A DNA stretch of 64,000 nt from an uncultured Eubacteriales bacterium (GCA_964633715.1 CAZWHQ010000007.1:20914-84913), one strand, 5' to 3'. Positions 12,669-34,988 are shown, counted from the stretch's first letter. A program made the numbers and translations. The notes: generated from the letters alone by a model not told the origin.

Positions 12669-13058
12669 ATAAAGGAATTATCTCTATTTCTATGATTTCA
12701 AGAACGAGTTCTCCGTGAACTAGCAAGTCGATGAGAAACCACGCTGCGCTTTCCCCAGGAGTCGCCGGCGCATCCTGCTCCATCTTCGTCGAAGACCCAA
12801 CCCACCTCACCACCATGCTCCTCAGATGGACATGGATGCCGCCGGGCCTATCCTGCGTATCCTTCAGTTGAGGCGGATGGACGTCGTCGTCTCTGTCACC
12901 ATTCACAACTTCTGTGATGGGGGCAGAACGCGTAAGGGTTCCGTCCGACTCTAAAATAAAGAGGACATACCCATGCCCGCTCGTCCTCCCCGTGCTGATT
13001 TCTACATCATCTTCCCAGAACTCTTATACAATCACAGAAATAGAGATAATTCCTTTAT
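12669..13058. repeat. 29-bp inverted repeat pair (12669..12697 and 13030..13058) enclosing a GC-rich ~330-bp segment
   Basis: ATAAAGGAATTATCTCTATTTCTATGATT versus the reverse complement of AATCACAGAAATAGAGATAATTCCTTTAT: 28/29 identical. Interior 12701..13020 is about 56% GC by hand count, visibly above the AT-rich flanks. Confidence 0.9.
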
Positions 13059-15208
13059 TAGATGCGCCACCAGTAGGAAAACTTTACAAACACGCTGTAA
13101 TCTGTCTGCCCGAAATGCCCGAATTCATTTTTAAGCAGGTTGTTGTCGACTCCAAAGAAAAAGACCGTGCCTGGACGAAGAATCCAGCTGAAAAGAAAAC
13201 TCCCATAGATCTCCTCGTCAAAATGGTTGTAATCGACAATACCCCGCACAGATAGAGTTCTGCTGAGCTGATAGGTCGTCCGCGTGCGAAGGACGTTATA
13301 ATCGTAGAGGATATCTCCACCTCTATCTTCAAAAAATGTCTGTTTGATGTACTGAAGGTCCAGCCTAAGCCTTTTACTTGGCTTTAATCCTAAAAAAAGA
13401 GCATATGTGTTGTTGTGCCCGAGGAAAGGATCATCGGGATCATAATAGATGCTTCCCCCTGTTTCAAACACAACCACGGATGTCAGCCATTTCAGAAACG
13501 TGAATTGTCCCTCCAATTCGAACGAATTTTTCTTAAAATTAACACCGGCATACCGTTCCATATCGGTTTGAAATCGAAATCGTAGCTGACTAAATTCAGT
13601 AAACCGGAAATTGAGATCCCCTCTCAGCCACTCATCTTGAAGGAGATTTTCAGAAAAAAAGAATCTCCGTCCTGCGTTCAGGTTAAGTTGGATCTGGCTT
13701 AAATACTTTTTCTCGGGATAAACAGAGGCAAATGTAAAGGCCCCATAGGATTTATAATCCACCCGGTTCACATATCCTGAGGAAGCTTCAAAATCAGGAT
13801 GCATGGCCTGACTGAAGATCCCCGCACCCCAGTGCTTGGAGTAATAAAAAAATTCTCCGTACAGGGCGGGGACGATATCGGTCTCTTCATCGGAGAGTTT
13901 TGTTTTTGAGGCCAAAGCCTGAAAATTAAAAAAGAATTTATTGTTGAATTTAAGCTGTCCATCGATCCCGGCCACACGATTGTATGACCCATTGATCTGT
14001 CTATCGGTAAGAGCAAATCCGATGTAGGATTCTTTGAGCACATCGGCCTTGATCCTGAAGATGTTGAAGAGAGCATTGTCAGTTTTAGCGCCTCCTCCGT
14101 TGCTGACATCCCATAGACTTTCCGTAGGACTCGTATCTAGAGCCGTAAGAACACCGTATGTAAAACGTCCAATTTTTCCCGTCAACTTCCCCCCTGCTAT
14201 AGGATCATTGATCCTTCGTGTGTAGACCATGTTGATCTGGGGAAAACGGAAGATTTCCATCCCTTCGAGAAAAAAGGGCCTCTTTTCCTCATAAAAGAGG
14301 GCAAATCTTTGGTTCACGTCAATTTGAGGAGCATCGGCTTCGATGTGACTAAAATCGGGATTGATGGTCAGATCCAATGTGGAGTTGGATGTGATTCCCC
14401 ACTTAAAGTTGATGCCGGGATCAAAATTCAACCTCTCTCCTTTAATCTTAAGTGATGTGGCCACCGGCATGAGTTCGAAGTTCTTGCCTCGCTCCACCGC
14501 CTCTGTGAGCAAAATTTCTCCACCCTGAGCTAGGAGTCCGGGAATATCTCTCGTATAGGTAGGCCACATGACGATTTCTCCGCTTCGGGCGATACTCCGC
14601 CCAAGAACGACACTCCACACTTTGTTCTCGTCATCCGGAAAGCGGAGGCTTTTAAAGGGAATCGCCATTTCGACAGTGTATCCGTCGTCATCGATCCTAC
14701 CGCCAGAGAAAAAGGCGGCATCCCAACTGAAGTCCATGTTGTCATTCCCTCCTTCTTCCATTCGGATACAATCCATCTGGACACCCAGAGGATTTGCGAG
14801 GAATGAAAGGGCCCGTCGTTTTTCATTAAAGGTATCAAGAAAAATCACGACCCAGTCATCCTCGATACACTGGTCGCGGTTGGTGATCGAGGCCCTGATT
14901 TTGCCCGGTTCACTGTCGTAACATTTTATGGCCACGTACAGGTTCTTTTTGTCATAACCCAAATACATAACCGTTTTTTCTGTGGGCGGCGCCCCTTCTT
15001 TTGGAGACAACTGGAAGAACTGCTCGAACTTAAGAGCTTCTTCCTCCCACAAGGGATTATCTAATATTCCGTCGATTTTAGGAGCATTTGAGAACAGGGG
15101 TATAGGCAGAGGTTCCTCAGAAGCAGAAAATCCCAACGAGGTCAAGAGAACCAGTCCCAATATTACACACATAGAGAAAAAAGGGCTATTTTTAATCATA
15201 TTTTTCAT
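13058..15208 (-). CDS. DUF5916-family protein with N-terminal CBM9-like sugar-binding domain and probable outer-membrane beta-barrel
   Basis: Signal peptide, APKIDGILD...W, YDKKNLYVAI, GYTVEMAIPFKSLRF, LTINPDFSHIEAD and LFYEEKRPFFLEG; aromatic C-terminus FVKFSYWWRI. Confidence 0.8.
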   Translation of the reverse strand: MKNMIKNSPFFSMCVILGLVLLTSLGFSASEEPLPIPLFSNAPKIDGILDNPLWEEEALKFEQFFQLSPKEGAPPTEKTVMYLGYDKKNLYVAIKCYDSEPGKIRASITNRDQCIEDDWVVIFLDTFNEKRRALSFLANPLGVQMDCIRMEEGGNDNMDFSWDAAFFSGGRIDDDGYTVEMAIPFKSLRFPDDENKVWSVVLGRSIARSGEIVMWPTYTRDIPGLLAQGGEILLTEAVERGKNFELMPVATSLKIKGERLNFDPGINFKWGITSNSTLDLTINPDFSHIEADAPQIDVNQRFALFYEEKRPFFLEGMEIFRFPQINMVYTRRINDPIAGGKLTGKIGRFTYGVLTALDTSPTESLWDVSNGGGAKTDNALFNIFRIKADVLKESYIGFALTDRQINGSYNRVAGIDGQLKFNNKFFFNFQALASKTKLSDEETDIVPALYGEFFYYSKHWGAGIFSQAMHPDFEASSGYVNRVDYKSYGAFTFASVYPEKKYLSQIQLNLNAGRRFFFSENLLQDEWLRGDLNFRFTEFSQLRFRFQTDMERYAGVNFKKNSFELEGQFTFLKWLTSVVVFETGGSIYYDPDDPFLGHNNTYALFLGLKPSKRLRLDLQYIKQTFFEDRGGDILYDYNVLRTRTTYQLSRTLSVRGIVDYNHFDEEIYGSFLFSWILRPGTVFFFGVDNNLLKNEFGHFGQTDYSVFVKFSYWWRI

Positions 15209-15285
15209 CTATTCTGCAATTCCGTCATTTATCTCTAGTTAATACGATATTAAACTCCAGAAAGTTCTCCCTATGAAAGAAAATA

Positions 15286-15314
15286 TTGACAATTTTACAT
15301 AAATCCGATATTAT
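15286..15314 (+). promoter_or_regulatory. Near-consensus sigma-70 promoter of a small stand-alone transcript
   Basis: TTGACA (15286-15291), 17 bp, TATTAT (15309-15314). Confidence 0.65.
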
Positions 15315-15344
15315 TACTCATATAAATTTCACAAGGAGCCACAA

Positions 15345-15407
15345 ATGAAGAAATATTCAGTTCCTCGGACTGCCCACTGCTCAGAGGGCTGCCAGAAAAA
15401 ATCCTGA
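15345..15407 (+). CDS. Putative 20-aa small protein MKKYSVPRTAHCSEGCQKKS
   Basis: AAGGAG SD at 15333-15338 and ATG 6 nt later; lies between a consensus promoter and an intrinsic terminator. Not in the supplied ORF track. Confidence 0.5.
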   Translation: MKKYSVPRTAHCSEGCQKKS

Positions 15408-15455
15408 ATAAGATGTAAAACTGTTCACTCACCAGTACTTACTGTCAAATTAAGG

Positions 15456-15492
15456 GCCCGTTCACGTGATATCTGAACGGGCTTTTTATTTT
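15456..15492 (+). terminator. Intrinsic terminator
   Basis: Stem GCCCGTTCA / TGAACGGGC with a 9-nt loop, followed by TTTTTATTTT on the + strand. Confidence 0.75.
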
Positions 15493-16004
15493 CCGGAGGA
15501 ATTCATCTCGGCCGCAAGGCTGAAGATTCGCTGGATGATATCCGTACTGGAGTGATCAGGAAGATATGGAATGGTGACAACCTTCCCTCCTGCTAACTCG
15601 ACTTCCTTTTTCCCGACCACCTCTTCAGGTTTCCAATCTCCTCCCTTAACCAAGACATCCGGCAAAAGACATGAGATGATTTCTTTGGGTGTTTCTTCAG
15701 AGAAGGAGACAAGATAATCGATATCCTCAATAGCCTCTAAGACTTCCATTCTTTCTTCAAGAGGAAAAATAGGGCGGTTGGGCCCCTTTATTTTGCCTAT
15801 ACTTGAATCATCATTGACCGCAACAAGGAGGACATCCCCCAGTTTTTTAGCTTCGCGGAAGAGATGGATATGTCCCCTGTGCAGTATGTCAAAACATCCG
15901 TTGGTAAAAACCACTTTTTTTTGACGGTCTTTTAAGGCCTGCCGGATAAGAACCAAACGTTGAATGTCTTGAATTTTCTCCACGACTCTAATCAAGATAT
16001 CCAA
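15486..16004 (-). CDS. rfaE2: D-glycero-beta-D-manno-heptose 1-phosphate adenylyltransferase (HldE domain II, stand-alone)
   Basis: VVFTNGCFDILHRGH, VAVNDDSS, KGPNRPI, PDVLVKGGDW. Confidence 0.9.
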   Translation of the reverse strand: MDILIRVVEKIQDIQRLVLIRQALKDRQKKVVFTNGCFDILHRGHIHLFREAKKLGDVLLVAVNDDSSIGKIKGPNRPIFPLEERMEVLEAIEDIDYLVSFSEETPKEIISCLLPDVLVKGGDWKPEEVVGKKEVELAGGKVVTIPYLPDHSSTDIIQRIFSLAAEMNSSGK

Positions 16005-32790: not shown

Positions 32791-34023
32791 ATGAAAAGAA
32801 TTAAGCTTCACCACCAAATCTTTATAGGTCTGATTCTCGGCGTAGTCATCGGGCTGATCTTTGGGGAAAAAGCCAGCGTGATCAAACCCATCGGCACCAT
32901 TTTTCTGAACCTGATCATCATGATTGTGGTCCCCCTGGTGCTGGTCTCCTTGATGCTGGGGACCGCCAGTCTTGGAGACATACGAAAGCTGGGGCGCATC
33001 GGTCTCAAAACAATCGTCTACTTCCTGCTCACAACCGTGGTGGCGGCATCGATCGGATTGGCCGCCGCAAACATCTTTAAACCCGGAGTCGGATTGGATG
33101 AGGAGGTCAAGGCAGAACTCCACAAGAATTTTGATGATGGGGCACAGGTGGGGATTCAAAAGATGGAAGAAAAACCTTCAGCCATCGATATTCTGATCAA
33201 TATCGTCCCCACCAATCCCATCAGATCTCTGGTTGAAGGAAATTTACTGCAGGTCATTTTTCTGGCTCTTCTTTTTGGATCCATTCTCACCATCATCAAA
33301 AAGGAAAGGGCCGAACCCGTCATAAAACTCCTCGAAGGCCTCAATGACGTCATCATCCAAGTCGTTCATCTCGCTATGAAGATCGCTCCATTAGGGGTTA
33401 TGGCCTTGATTGCAGATGTCATCGGGCAGTACGGAGAAGGCATCCTTTTAACTCTTCTTAAATACATCCTGGTTTGTGTGGGAGCCTTGCTGCTTTACAC
33501 TATCGGCATGAACTCACTAACCCTCAGCACTCTGGGACGAACCAATCCTTTACACTTTCTTAAAGCCACAAAAGAGGCTATGCTTATCGCTTTTAGCACA
33601 TCCAGTTCAAATGCGGCTCTTCCGGTCAGCATGGAGAGTGTCGAACACCTCGGTGTCTCCCGAGAATACTCCAGTTTTGTCATCCCCTTAGGAGCGACCA
33701 TCAACATGGATGGGACGGCTCTCTACCAGGGGGTCGCCGCCCTCTTTATCGCCCAAATTTACGGCATTCCCCTCACATTTGTAGATCAGGTAACGATTGT
33801 TTTTATGGCTACTCTGTCTTCGATTGGGGCTGCGGGTGTCCCCGCTGCCGGCATCATCACCCTGGCCATGGTCCTCAGGCAAATAGGAATACCGCTCGAA
33901 GGAATCGCTTTTATCATTGGGGTTGACCGATTTCCTGACATGTTCCGCACCATGACAAATATTACGGGTGACATGGCCTGTTCCGTGGTGATCAAAGCCA
34001 GCGAAGAAAAGAACTCGTCATGA
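32791..34023 (+). CDS. Dicarboxylate/amino acid:cation symporter (GltP/GltPh family), probably acidic amino acid, Na+-coupled
   Basis: FSTSSSNAALP, GATINMDGTALY; TM8 DMFRTMTNITGD keeps the Arg and Asp equivalent to GltPh substrate and Na+ sites. Confidence 0.88.
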   Translation: MKRIKLHHQIFIGLILGVVIGLIFGEKASVIKPIGTIFLNLIIMIVVPLVLVSLMLGTASLGDIRKLGRIGLKTIVYFLLTTVVAASIGLAAANIFKPGVGLDEEVKAELHKNFDDGAQVGIQKMEEKPSAIDILINIVPTNPIRSLVEGNLLQVIFLALLFGSILTIIKKERAEPVIKLLEGLNDVIIQVVHLAMKIAPLGVMALIADVIGQYGEGILLTLLKYILVCVGALLLYTIGMNSLTLSTLGRTNPLHFLKATKEAMLIAFSTSSSNAALPVSMESVEHLGVSREYSSFVIPLGATINMDGTALYQGVAALFIAQIYGIPLTFVDQVTIVFMATLSSIGAAGVPAAGIITLAMVLRQIGIPLEGIAFIIGVDRFPDMFRTMTNITGDMACSVVIKASEEKNSS

Positions 34024-34988
34024 TCTCTTTCAAATACAGTGTCCGCCTCCTCAGGCTTTTTTATCACTACATTAGGAAATCCAAAAAACTTCCCTATGCC
34101 CCGGTCCGCTTGTGGGTGGAATTGACCAGTTTATGCAATTACAGATGTTCCATGTGCCCCAATAAAGACATGAACAAAGAGGCTCATGGGTACATGGATT
34201 TTGCTCTCTACAAAAAAATTATCGATGAGGCCGCCGGTTTTGCCTTCGAAATCAATCTTGCACACCGAGGAGAATCTCTCCTGCACCCTCAGATCGTGGA
34301 GGCCATTCTTTATGCTAAAAGCAAAGGGCTCTTCACTCGACTGCACACGAACGGGTCTCTTCTTACTGAAGAACTGGGATTAAAAATCTTGGAATCCGGA
34401 CTGGACCGCCTCTCCTTCTCATTTGACGGATTTGAAAAGGACACCTACGAAAAGATTAGAGTGGGGGGACATTTCGAAAAAACACTTCAGAATATTTTAC
34501 GGTTTCTGGAAATAAAAAGGGAAAAGAAGTCAAAAAAACCCAATACGTCCATCGAAGTGATCAATTTCGAAACCAACAAACGTCTTCTTGCAAGAAAAGA
34601 GTTTGAGGCTAAATTTAAAGATCTGCCATTAGACAGTTTCGTTTTCAAGGATCTCCACAACTGGGCGGGAGAAACAGCAAAAGAACACATTTCAAAGCAT
34701 TCTTCGACCTGTACATTTCCATGGAATGCACTGGTTATTTTTTGGGACGGAAATGTCTTGCCCTGTTCACAGGATTTTTTTGGGAGCTATATTTTGGGAA
34801 ATGTCAAAGAATCCTCCTTGAAAGACATTTGGAACAACACACGGAGTGCACAACTGAGAGAGAAGCTCTCTAAAAAAGACATCCAGGACTTGAAAGCCTG
34901 CCGCAATTGCGACCGCCTGCACCGAAAGAAATTTTTGGGCGTCCCTAAAGAATTCCTGTGGAAATTTATCTCAAAAAAAATGCCTTGA
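34020..34988 (+). CDS. Radical SAM protein with SPASM/twitch domain
   Basis: CNYRCSMC (CxxxCxxC), HRGESLLHP, LHTNG; C-terminal CTFPW...DGNVLPC...GNV...CRNC. Confidence 0.9.
   Translation: MISFKYSVRLLRLFYHYIRKSKKLPYAPVRLWVELTSLCNYRCSMCPNKDMNKEAHGYMDFALYKKIIDEAAGFAFEINLAHRGESLLHPQIVEAILYAKSKGLFTRLHTNGSLLTEELGLKILESGLDRLSFSFDGFEKDTYEKIRVGGHFEKTLQNILRFLEIKREKKSKKPNTSIEVINFETNKRLLARKEFEAKFKDLPLDSFVFKDLHNWAGETAKEHISKHSSTCTFPWNALVIFWDGNVLPCSQDFFGSYILGNVKESSLKDIWNNTRSAQLREKLSKKDIQDLKACRNCDRLHRKKFLGVPKEFLWKFISKKMP

Follow-up and report, generated by a model that had tools for sequence, protein, structure and literature searches.

A predicted micro-protein gene joined to a phage-type gene-end pseudoknot in Aminicenantales-type bacteria

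Our analysis of a 64,000-nucleotide (nt) stretch from a metagenome-assembled genome (MAG) titled 'uncultured Eubacteriales bacterium' (GCA_964633715.1, CAZWHQ010000007.1:20914-84913; hereafter the window) revealed a transcription unit of about 170 nt, consisting of a promoter, a Shine-Dalgarno (SD) sequence, an open reading frame (ORF) that has 16 to 22 codons among relatives, and a terminator, in which the ORF is coupled to an H-type RNA pseudoknot. Such a fixed fusion of an ORF with this pseudoknot, present once per genome throughout an order, is new, and comparison among relatives indicates that the unit is a conserved, real gene, far beyond a chance ORF. We favour, with somewhat better than even confidence, the reading that the unit is a real micro-protein gene, transcribed on its own, whose phage-type gene-end pseudoknot would act as a cap or roadblock. 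The preliminary description of this region, made from the window alone, had proposed a strongly expressed small protein or an approximately 170-nt small RNA (sRNA) with a short ORF, and had expected standard annotation to miss it. We agree that annotation overlooks this micro-gene; the finding gains further value because of the pseudoknot, which that description had itself overlooked.

The coding evidence was first taken from 48 distinct coding sequences of relatives, of which 47 start with ATG and one with GTG, an SD-like sequence being present in 46. Summed entropy over codons 1 to 16 was 9.6, 7.1 and 21.3 bits at codon positions 1, 2 and 3, respectively, and the residues P7, R8, C12, G15 and C16 are invariant, with H11 kept in 47 of the 48 sequences; the codons for Arg8 alternate between CGN and AGR. 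To avoid circularity, 37 loci were re-chosen by the downstream RNA motif and the convergent heptose adenylyltransferase gene rfaE-II only, the peptide not being used. All 37 have an ORF with a start codon (ATG or GTG) and an intact frame, and the ratio of non-synonymous to synonymous changes (pN/pS) is 0.27 in frame versus 1.07 and 0.98 off frame. Relatives thus keep the start codon, the SD and the open frame, with a synonymous bias in one frame only, as in small protein-coding genes, and these comparisons indicate that codons 1 to 16 are under protein-level purifying selection. The preliminary description had staked its small-protein proposal on conservation of frame, SD and cysteines with synonymous-biased substitution, and relatives do keep the frame, the SD, the histidine and both cysteines, with the expected bias.

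The peptide tail (codons 17 to 20) is variable and several lineages have earlier stops at codons 17 to 19, so that the functional core would comprise 16 residues: a basic N-terminus, P-R, and then H-C-x-x-G-C. This last motif suggests thiol/imidazole chemistry, involving metal or redox reactions. The micro-protein is probably made, whereas metal binding or redox activity is a tentative assignment based on the motif. Searches of the peptide against Pfam, NCBIfam and PDB sequences gave no match, nor did the literature searched contain a match to the peptide or to a described family; the micro-protein family appears to be undescribed.

The unit is conserved well beyond close relatives. In a DNA search of 40 relatives, only the region from about 15333 to 15428, that is the SD, the ORF and about 20 nt past the stop, was conserved beyond the genus; among the matches in 17 relatives of the family and order, conservation was confined to SD, ORF and pseudoknot, and every match had an SD and an ORF of 18 to 22 codons with the same core. 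A codon pattern built from the peptide alone matched 106 of 301 genomes of the class, and a reversed control pattern matched none. All nine families of the window's order were represented, including f1 (58 of 81 genomes), f7 (14/19), f9 (3/4), f5 (18/68) and f3 (8/26), as well as f2, f4, f6 and f8, and none of 93 genomes from other orders of the class matched. A pattern for peptide plus pseudoknot matched 75 of the 301 class genomes. The peptide pattern was strict and many of the genomes are incomplete MAGs, and therefore the genome counts for it are lower bounds.

The records of matching relatives are titled Candidatus Aminicenantes, Aminicenantales or Aminicenantaceae. Several third-party annotation co-assembly MAGs that bear the title 'uncultured Eubacteriales bacterium' share the window's family and the Aminicenantes unit, and such names are evidently placeholders. 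The distribution indicates that the unit is inherited vertically across one order of Aminicenantales-type MAGs, with one copy per genome. One genome of the same family (G300) contained two differing peptide-plus-pseudoknot units (C8:47641-47703 and C25:149863-149925), which could reflect a duplication or a mixed bin; all other genomes were single-copy for the unit.

The pseudoknot overlaps the end of the ORF, the TGA stop codon spanning its first loop (L1) and its second stem (S2). Across copies, a 5' flank of the form N-N-A/G-U-C pairs in the first stem (S1) with the start of the hairpin loop, G-A-U/C-N-N. In 136 distinct copies, 93% of the cells were paired, a value reached by none of 500 shuffles, and slid controls had at most 48% of cells paired. 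The fourth S1 pair, which was unconstrained, was CG in 51 of these copies, UA in 41 and UG in 11, and S2 showed compensatory changes from GC to AU (11) and from CG to UA (13). Stem S1 is AUC/GAU in families f1, f7 and f9 and, by compensatory change, CUC/GAG or GCUC/GAGC in f5, f3, f2, f4 and f6; phage variants have GUC/GAC. Among 67 units of the order, L1 is CU in 61 and CC in six, and the third loop (L3) is UAAAAC in 52. The window copy therefore shows two features of the gene-end pseudoknot family, namely crossing helices with compensatory changes, and single-stranded L1 C-U with an L3 ending in AAAAC. In a permissive search of the window and of five cultured-phage loci, no Rfam family matched at the motif, and the literature searched for the motif and for bacterial or phage exoribonuclease-resistant RNAs (xrRNAs) yielded nothing relevant.

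Several other readings of the motif were rejected. Sites acting as DNA (an extended -10 promoter, sigma-54, LexA, CIRCE, IHF, DnaA boxes, dif and attC) were discarded because the would-be -11 purine alternates between A and G, the interleaved repeats covary, and G-U pairs in the stems are possible on the plus strand only. A selenoprotein, which would call for a conserved frame past an in-frame UGA and a selenocysteine insertion sequence some 16 to 37 nt downstream, or another form of stop read-through, was discarded since the read-through frames meet stops within two to eight codons and are not conserved, and at three loci (L019, L020 and L023) the frame is closed earlier by a stop although the RNA motif is the same. 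The pseudoknot region is thus conserved at the nucleotide level whatever the frame. Frameshifting by -1 or +1 was likewise rejected, the alternative frames not being conserved and no slippery site being shared, and a likeness of the motif to helix 1 at the 5' end of 16S rRNA and to boxA was judged too weak.

The coupling of ORF and pseudoknot is close to invariant. A parseable pseudoknot was found in 67 of 69 distinct units, and in 66 of these 67 S1 begins exactly 7 nt past the Cys16 codon, with codons in between that vary freely. A covariance model detected a single copy in the window's genome (47 bits; next match E = 8), and one copy each in three complete Aminicenantes and two complete Saccharibacteria genomes. 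Each of the 38 matching genomes of the order has exactly one pseudoknot, invariably at the peptide locus. Where the stop falls relative to the pseudoknot differs among lineages (codon 17, 18, 19, 21 or further): lineages that stop right after Cys16, at codon 17, reproduce the geometry seen in phages, and the common 20-codon form runs on to the UGA of the knot.

Outside this order the pseudoknot occurs without the peptide. An exact-pattern scan of species-representative genomes returned 82 loci, about 45 of them in Aminicenantes, all with the peptide; the remaining loci lack it and lie in Saccharibacteria, in at least three contexts, and in phage-like regions binned with Actinomycetota, Eggerthellaceae, Coxiellaceae, Erysipelotrichaceae, Gastranaerophilaceae and others. 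In a viral collection, more than 120 contigs among the matches listed had the pseudoknot, and the cultured phages Labelle, ParMal1, Molivia, S-EIVl and S-RIM4, with hosts in Mycobacterium, Arthrobacter, Paracoccus and Synechococcus, carry variants of it; the motif was absent from all of 5,426 Escherichia coli genomes. In 100 distinct non-Aminicenantes contexts the motif was intergenic and co-directional with genes. An ORF of at least 50 codons ended 3 to 12 nt ahead of it in 48 of these contexts, a tRNA started 2 to 12 nt past it in 24, and its internal UGA was not used as a stop beyond chance. PHROGs searches on the genes flanking the motif in other phyla found no shared family. Taken together, these occurrences indicate that the pseudoknot of the Aminicenantes unit belongs to an uncatalogued family that is very common in phages, immediately downstream of stop codons and ahead of tRNAs. 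The Aminicenantes copy has the same crossing stems, L1 C-U, S2 consensus and A-rich L3 ending in AAAAC, the same lack of an Rfam match, and the same co-directional placement right where a coding region ends. It differs from the phage copies in being chromosomal, vertically inherited, single-copy and fixed at 7 nt from one micro-ORF, and in that the micro-ORF usually ends inside the knot at the L1/S2 UGA.

Several phage contexts were recurrent or unusual. A cassette found in uncultured phages (contigs L110, L131, L137, L149, L152, L162, L163, L165, L177 and others) has the end of a DUF932-like gene (phrog_1221), the pseudoknot 6 nt further on, and tRNA-Asp(GTC) 3 to 4 nt later. In Labelle, ParMal1 and Molivia (L228, L229 and L230) the motif is part of the replication/recombination module: RecA-like or SSB-like genes precede it, a tRNA, primase, DnaB-like helicase or DnaE follows, and none of the records annotates it. 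One viral contig (L115:7399-7510) has two pseudoknots 78 nt apart, the others among the matches listed having one. A clustered regularly interspaced short palindromic repeat (CRISPR) array in a Limisphaerales MAG (L047:2500-3400; 37-nt repeat, spacers of about 40 nt) has one spacer that holds the whole pseudoknot motif, from which it follows that hosts target phage DNA at this element.

The transcription signals of the window unit (Table 1) are well defined. The promoter, SD, ORF and terminator stem with T tract named in the preliminary description are all present, and the proposed 3' untranslated region of about 50 nt exists as well, although its first 22 nt or so form, with the last two codons, the conserved pseudoknot. 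The promoter matches the consensus at 11 of 12 positions, no other site in 3 kb being as good, and transcription would start near 15321. In 68 related units the best upstream sigma-70 match averages 10.1 of 12 versus 7.4 ± 1.3 in shuffles, a match of at least 10 of 12 lies within 90 nt upstream in 54 of the 68 versus 3% of shuffles, and the 3' end of the -10 element is mostly 27 to 38 nt ahead of the ATG. Nucleotide conservation ends at the 3' end of the pseudoknot. A hairpin with a T tract was seen downstream in the relatives inspected; a strict scan detected a terminator in 31 of 68 units. In the window, an automatic scan limited to loops of up to 8 nt missed the terminator solely on account of its 9-nt loop. 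At the sequence level, the near-consensus hexamers with a spacing in the range of 16 to 18 nt, the GC-rich hairpin with T tract and the conserved positions correspond to a sigma-70 promoter and an intrinsic terminator, and the unit is probably strongly transcribed. A single public metatranscriptome run contained a 270-nt contig of an 86%-identical relative spanning 15254-15427; it is compatible with an abundant short RNA, as a hint and not as proof of transcription.

Table 1. Coordinates of the micro-gene, its pseudoknot and the flanking genes, counted from the first nucleotide of the window
Feature	Position	Strand	Details
Sigma-70-type promoter	15286..15314	+	-35 TTGACA 15286-15291; 17-nt spacer; -10 TATTAT 15309-15314
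Shine-Dalgarno AAGGAG	15333..15338	+	6 nt ahead of ATG
ORF, predicted 20-aa micro-protein	15345..15407	+	ATG 15345; TGA 15405-15407
H-type RNA pseudoknot, 26 nt	15401..15426	+	Comparison of copies, covariation
Pseudoknot stem S1	15401-15403 with 15412-15414	+	3-bp stem
Pseudoknot stem S2	15406-15410 with 15422-15426	+	5-bp hairpin stem
Pseudoknot loops	L1 15404-15405; L2 15411; L3 15415-15421	+	L1 CU; L2 1 nt; L3 A-rich
Spacer, pseudoknot to terminator	15427..15455	+	Sequence not conserved; length differs among relatives
Intrinsic terminator	15456..15492	+	9-bp GC-rich stem 15456-15464/15474-15482; 9-nt loop; T tract 15483-15492
DUF5916/CBM9 protein	13058-15208	-	Divergent neighbour
D-glycero-beta-D-manno-heptose 1-phosphate adenylyltransferase (rfaE domain II)	15486..16004	-	Convergent; TIGR02199 186.4 bits, cut-off 181.5

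Both neighbours lie on the minus strand, which bears out the earlier view that the unit stands alone and is a leader for neither; the co-directional regulated gene that would follow a leader peptide or attenuator is lacking, the ORF being followed by a terminator and then by a convergent gene. The rfaE-II gene is a conserved syntenic partner: in 37 of 48 related loci, spread over several families, it adjoins the unit in convergent orientation, and the upstream neighbour changes. In the window, the rfaE-II stop codon (15486-15488) falls within the T tract of the micro-gene terminator, and the terminator is for this reason probably bidirectional. By this arrangement one hairpin would probably end both convergent transcripts, at the tail of a gene string comprising ATP-synthase, wzm-wzt, DUF2061 and rfaE-II genes.

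Several characterized systems resemble the unit in part. The coremin motif (xrRNA-C) and its Watson-Crick variant xrRNA-WCC, from plant, fungal and picorna-like RNA viruses, stall the exonuclease Xrn1 and ribosomes and stimulate frameshifting in vitro (PMC10520033, PMC10321173). Like coremin, the gene-end pseudoknot has a short S1 of the GUC/GAC type (exactly so in phage variants), a short L1, pairing of a loop with a 3' spacer, an A-rich strand G-U-(U/A)-A-A-A-C-U, and a size of about 20 to 30 nt. However, xrRNA-C requires a first loop of YGAD (4 nt) or YGNNAD (6 nt) and a second hairpin directly downstream (PMC10520033), and the window pseudoknot shows neither: its S1 strands are separated by an 8-nt loop, which pairs with the 3' strand, and the sequence past the knot is not conserved and offers no conserved second hairpin next to it, the window terminator being 29 nt away. 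Its S2 has five Watson-Crick pairs, and its hosts are bacteria.

A second resemblance is to the luteovirus-type -1 frameshift signal of beet western yellows virus (BWYV) and to the preQ1-I riboswitch (RF00522), which are also compact H-type folds of 26 to 34 nt with one stem of 5 bp and another of 3 to 5, an L1 of 1 to 2 nt, and an A-rich loop placed for the minor groove, a few nt past the codons being read. The order of short and long stem is reversed relative to both, and the window pseudoknot has no slippery heptamer and no conserved -1, +1 or read-through extension; the SD lies outside the fold, there is no expression platform, and the Rfam models give no match. With bacterial small-protein genes that have a promoter and terminator of their own, and with TnaC-like mini-ORFs, the unit shares a stand-alone SD, ATG and short ORF with the UGA beside an RNA signal, and a peptide short enough to fit wholly within the exit tunnel. 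The peptide is, however, not hydrophobic, and is thus no membrane micro-protein or type I toxin; furthermore, no gene lies downstream for the unit to regulate, conservation extends over all 16 core residues, and the peptide matches no described family.

The reading that we favour, a micro-protein gene with a gene-end pseudoknot as cap or roadblock, would combine two functions. The peptide would be the functional product, most likely a metal- or redox-active micro-protein acting through thiol and histidine groups, or a small partner of a larger protein. The pseudoknot would act here as it may at the ends of phage genes, forming a compact mechanical cap or roadblock at the smallest possible distance from where the essential coding sequence ends. 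In this position it may shield the tiny message from 3'-to-5' decay after the terminator has been clipped off, and it may meet the ribosome while the last conserved codons are being read; the 4-codon tail would exist solely because the frame continues to the UGA within the pseudoknot. As to direction, RNase J (TIGR00649), to our knowledge the only bacterial 5'-to-3' exonuclease, was not found in the window's genome (91% complete) or in three complete relatives, which makes a 5'-to-3' block unlikely in this host; it was present in the two motif-bearing Saccharibacteria genomes. The pseudoknot may be a 3'-to-5' cap or may interact with ribosome or polymerase, and the cap reading of the pseudoknot taken on its own is one that we hold only tentatively.

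Several observations weigh against this overall interpretation. With a terminator hairpin already in place, a further 3' cap seems redundant, and the strict 7-nt spacing and the exclusive pairing with the ORF hint at a coupling of ribosome and RNA tighter than a generic cap needs. The lack of any Pfam, NCBIfam or PDB match makes the chemistry of the peptide a guess. The metatranscriptome contig reaches upstream of the predicted promoter, possibly owing to DNA carry-over. Furthermore, one locus (L258, G006:C192) keeps a 16-codon ORF with a stop after Cys16 and has no recognizable pseudoknot, so that the two parts are separable; it is the only such case among the 69 units.

Because of the strict spacing and the exclusive pairing, a translation-coupled switch stays the main rival. 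Under this alternative, which we consider unlikely, the unit would be a translation-sensing riboregulator: a regulatory mini-cistron whose conserved residues act in the ribosome tunnel, where the position of the ribosome decides whether the knot folds, and the folded knot acts on RNA polymerase or on RNA decay. As known from frameshift signals, a 7-nt spacing sets the 5' edge of the knot at the mRNA entrance of the ribosome while codons 15 and 16 are decoded. The occurrence of the pseudoknot nowhere else in these genomes, and the conserved convergent arrangement with a terminator that abuts the rfaE-II stop, would also be consistent with such a role, as would the finding that coremin-type relatives of the fold stall ribosomes in vitro (PMC10520033, PMC10321173). 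However, the position of the stop relative to the knot is not conserved, such that the ribosome must melt the knot in some lineages and need not in others, no co-directional gene lies downstream, and polymerase contact by this pseudoknot is conjecture. Moreover, pN/pS is 0.27 across all 16 core residues, N-terminus included, and this fits a mature product at least as well. Such regulation might, for instance, let transcription pass the shared terminator and produce antisense RNA to the convergent rfaE-II / wzm-wzt / ATP-synthase operon. In its specific form, to which we assign a slim likelihood, a ribosome on the H-C-x-x-G-C codons would abut the tough knot, and the folded or melted state would set the fate of the transcript or polymerase, thereby controlling antisense transcription into the heptose / O-antigen-export / ATP-synthase operon.

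A dual-function or RNA-level gene is about as improbable as that specific switch. Here the transcript of about 170 nt, or a fragment with knot and terminator, would be an sRNA or a protein sponge and the peptide would be secondary. At the nucleotide level nothing in the unit is as conserved as the pseudoknot, which also occurs in phages that lack the peptide, and sRNA genes typically have a strong promoter and a terminator; nevertheless, selection on the protein is evident from the codon-position pattern and from the CGN/AGR switches at Arg8, the spacer between knot and terminator is not conserved and thus offers no base-pairing seed, and the RNase J that could carve such a fragment 5'-to-3' was not found in the window's genome or in three complete relatives. 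Of the two proposals in the preliminary description, the small protein is accordingly supported by selection on the ORF, and the sRNA survives in part, through the knot shared with the phage motif.

The preliminary description had also suggested a precursor of a ribosomally synthesized and post-translationally modified peptide (RiPP), with a cysteine core modified in trans, for example by the radical S-adenosylmethionine (SAM)/SPASM enzyme at 34020-34988. We regard this as very unlikely, together with its variant in which a leader would be cut before His11 to free an H-C-x-x-G-C metal-binding hexa- to decapeptide resembling a nickel hook. The invariant P-R-x-[A/S] ahead of H-C-x-x-G-C does resemble a leader/core junction with a small residue at -1, and the window encodes a radical SAM/SPASM protein. 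In addition, the spacing H-C-x-x-x-C equals that of the nickel hook of nickel superoxide dismutase (NiSOD) and of the copper site of Sco, formed by CxxxC and His. The NiSOD hook is H-C-x-x-P-C-G-x-Y at the processed N-terminus of a four-helix protein of about 117 residues, and as a description of the peptide it was rejected: the His/Cys/Cys spacing is the same, but the peptide has Gly in place of Pro5, lacks Gly7 and Tyr9, and includes no Sod_Ni domain. No hit to Sod_Ni (PF09055) exceeded the cut-off in the window's genome, where two desulfoferrodoxin-type superoxide reductases, and no Fe/Mn or Ni superoxide dismutase, were detected; with two superoxide reductases present, there is no obvious gap for a nickel-hook peptide to fill. 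Across 335 kb of flanks from 48 loci, no maturase, protease or transporter/exporter is linked to the unit, and no radical SAM/SPASM homologue is found, so that the genomic context lends the RiPP idea no support. The enzyme at 34020-34988, 18.6 kb from the unit, is a generic radical SAM/SPASM protein that passes the cut-off of no specific family; its gene is flanked by those for a dicarboxylate symporter and KsgA.

That the unit is no gene, and merely a chance ORF in an intergenic region with a domesticated phage RNA element and a bidirectional terminator, is extremely improbable: the ORF has just 20 codons and the pseudoknot by itself is common elsewhere, but start and frame persist at every locus chosen without the peptide, with pN/pS far below the value of about 1 seen off frame, and the SD is kept while the control pattern matches no genome.

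The micro-gene would thus represent a new micro-protein family, which purifying selection maintains across an order of uncultured bacteria that are abundant in the environment, and which is placed behind a near-consensus promoter. Its pseudoknot belongs to a family that is scattered over hundreds of unrelated phages without a catalogue entry, and RNase J is apparently missing from the hosts of the Aminicenantes unit, which speaks against that family serving purely to block 5'-to-3' exonucleases. As a cellular, vertically inherited, single-copy pseudoknot at a fixed distance from a defined ORF, the Aminicenantes unit is the simplest place to test whether such knots serve as a cap, a ribosome roadblock or a polymerase signal. 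If the translation-coupled switch were true, this chromosomal case would reveal that the phage gene-end knot acts on the terminating ribosome or polymerase, beyond a mere RNA cap.

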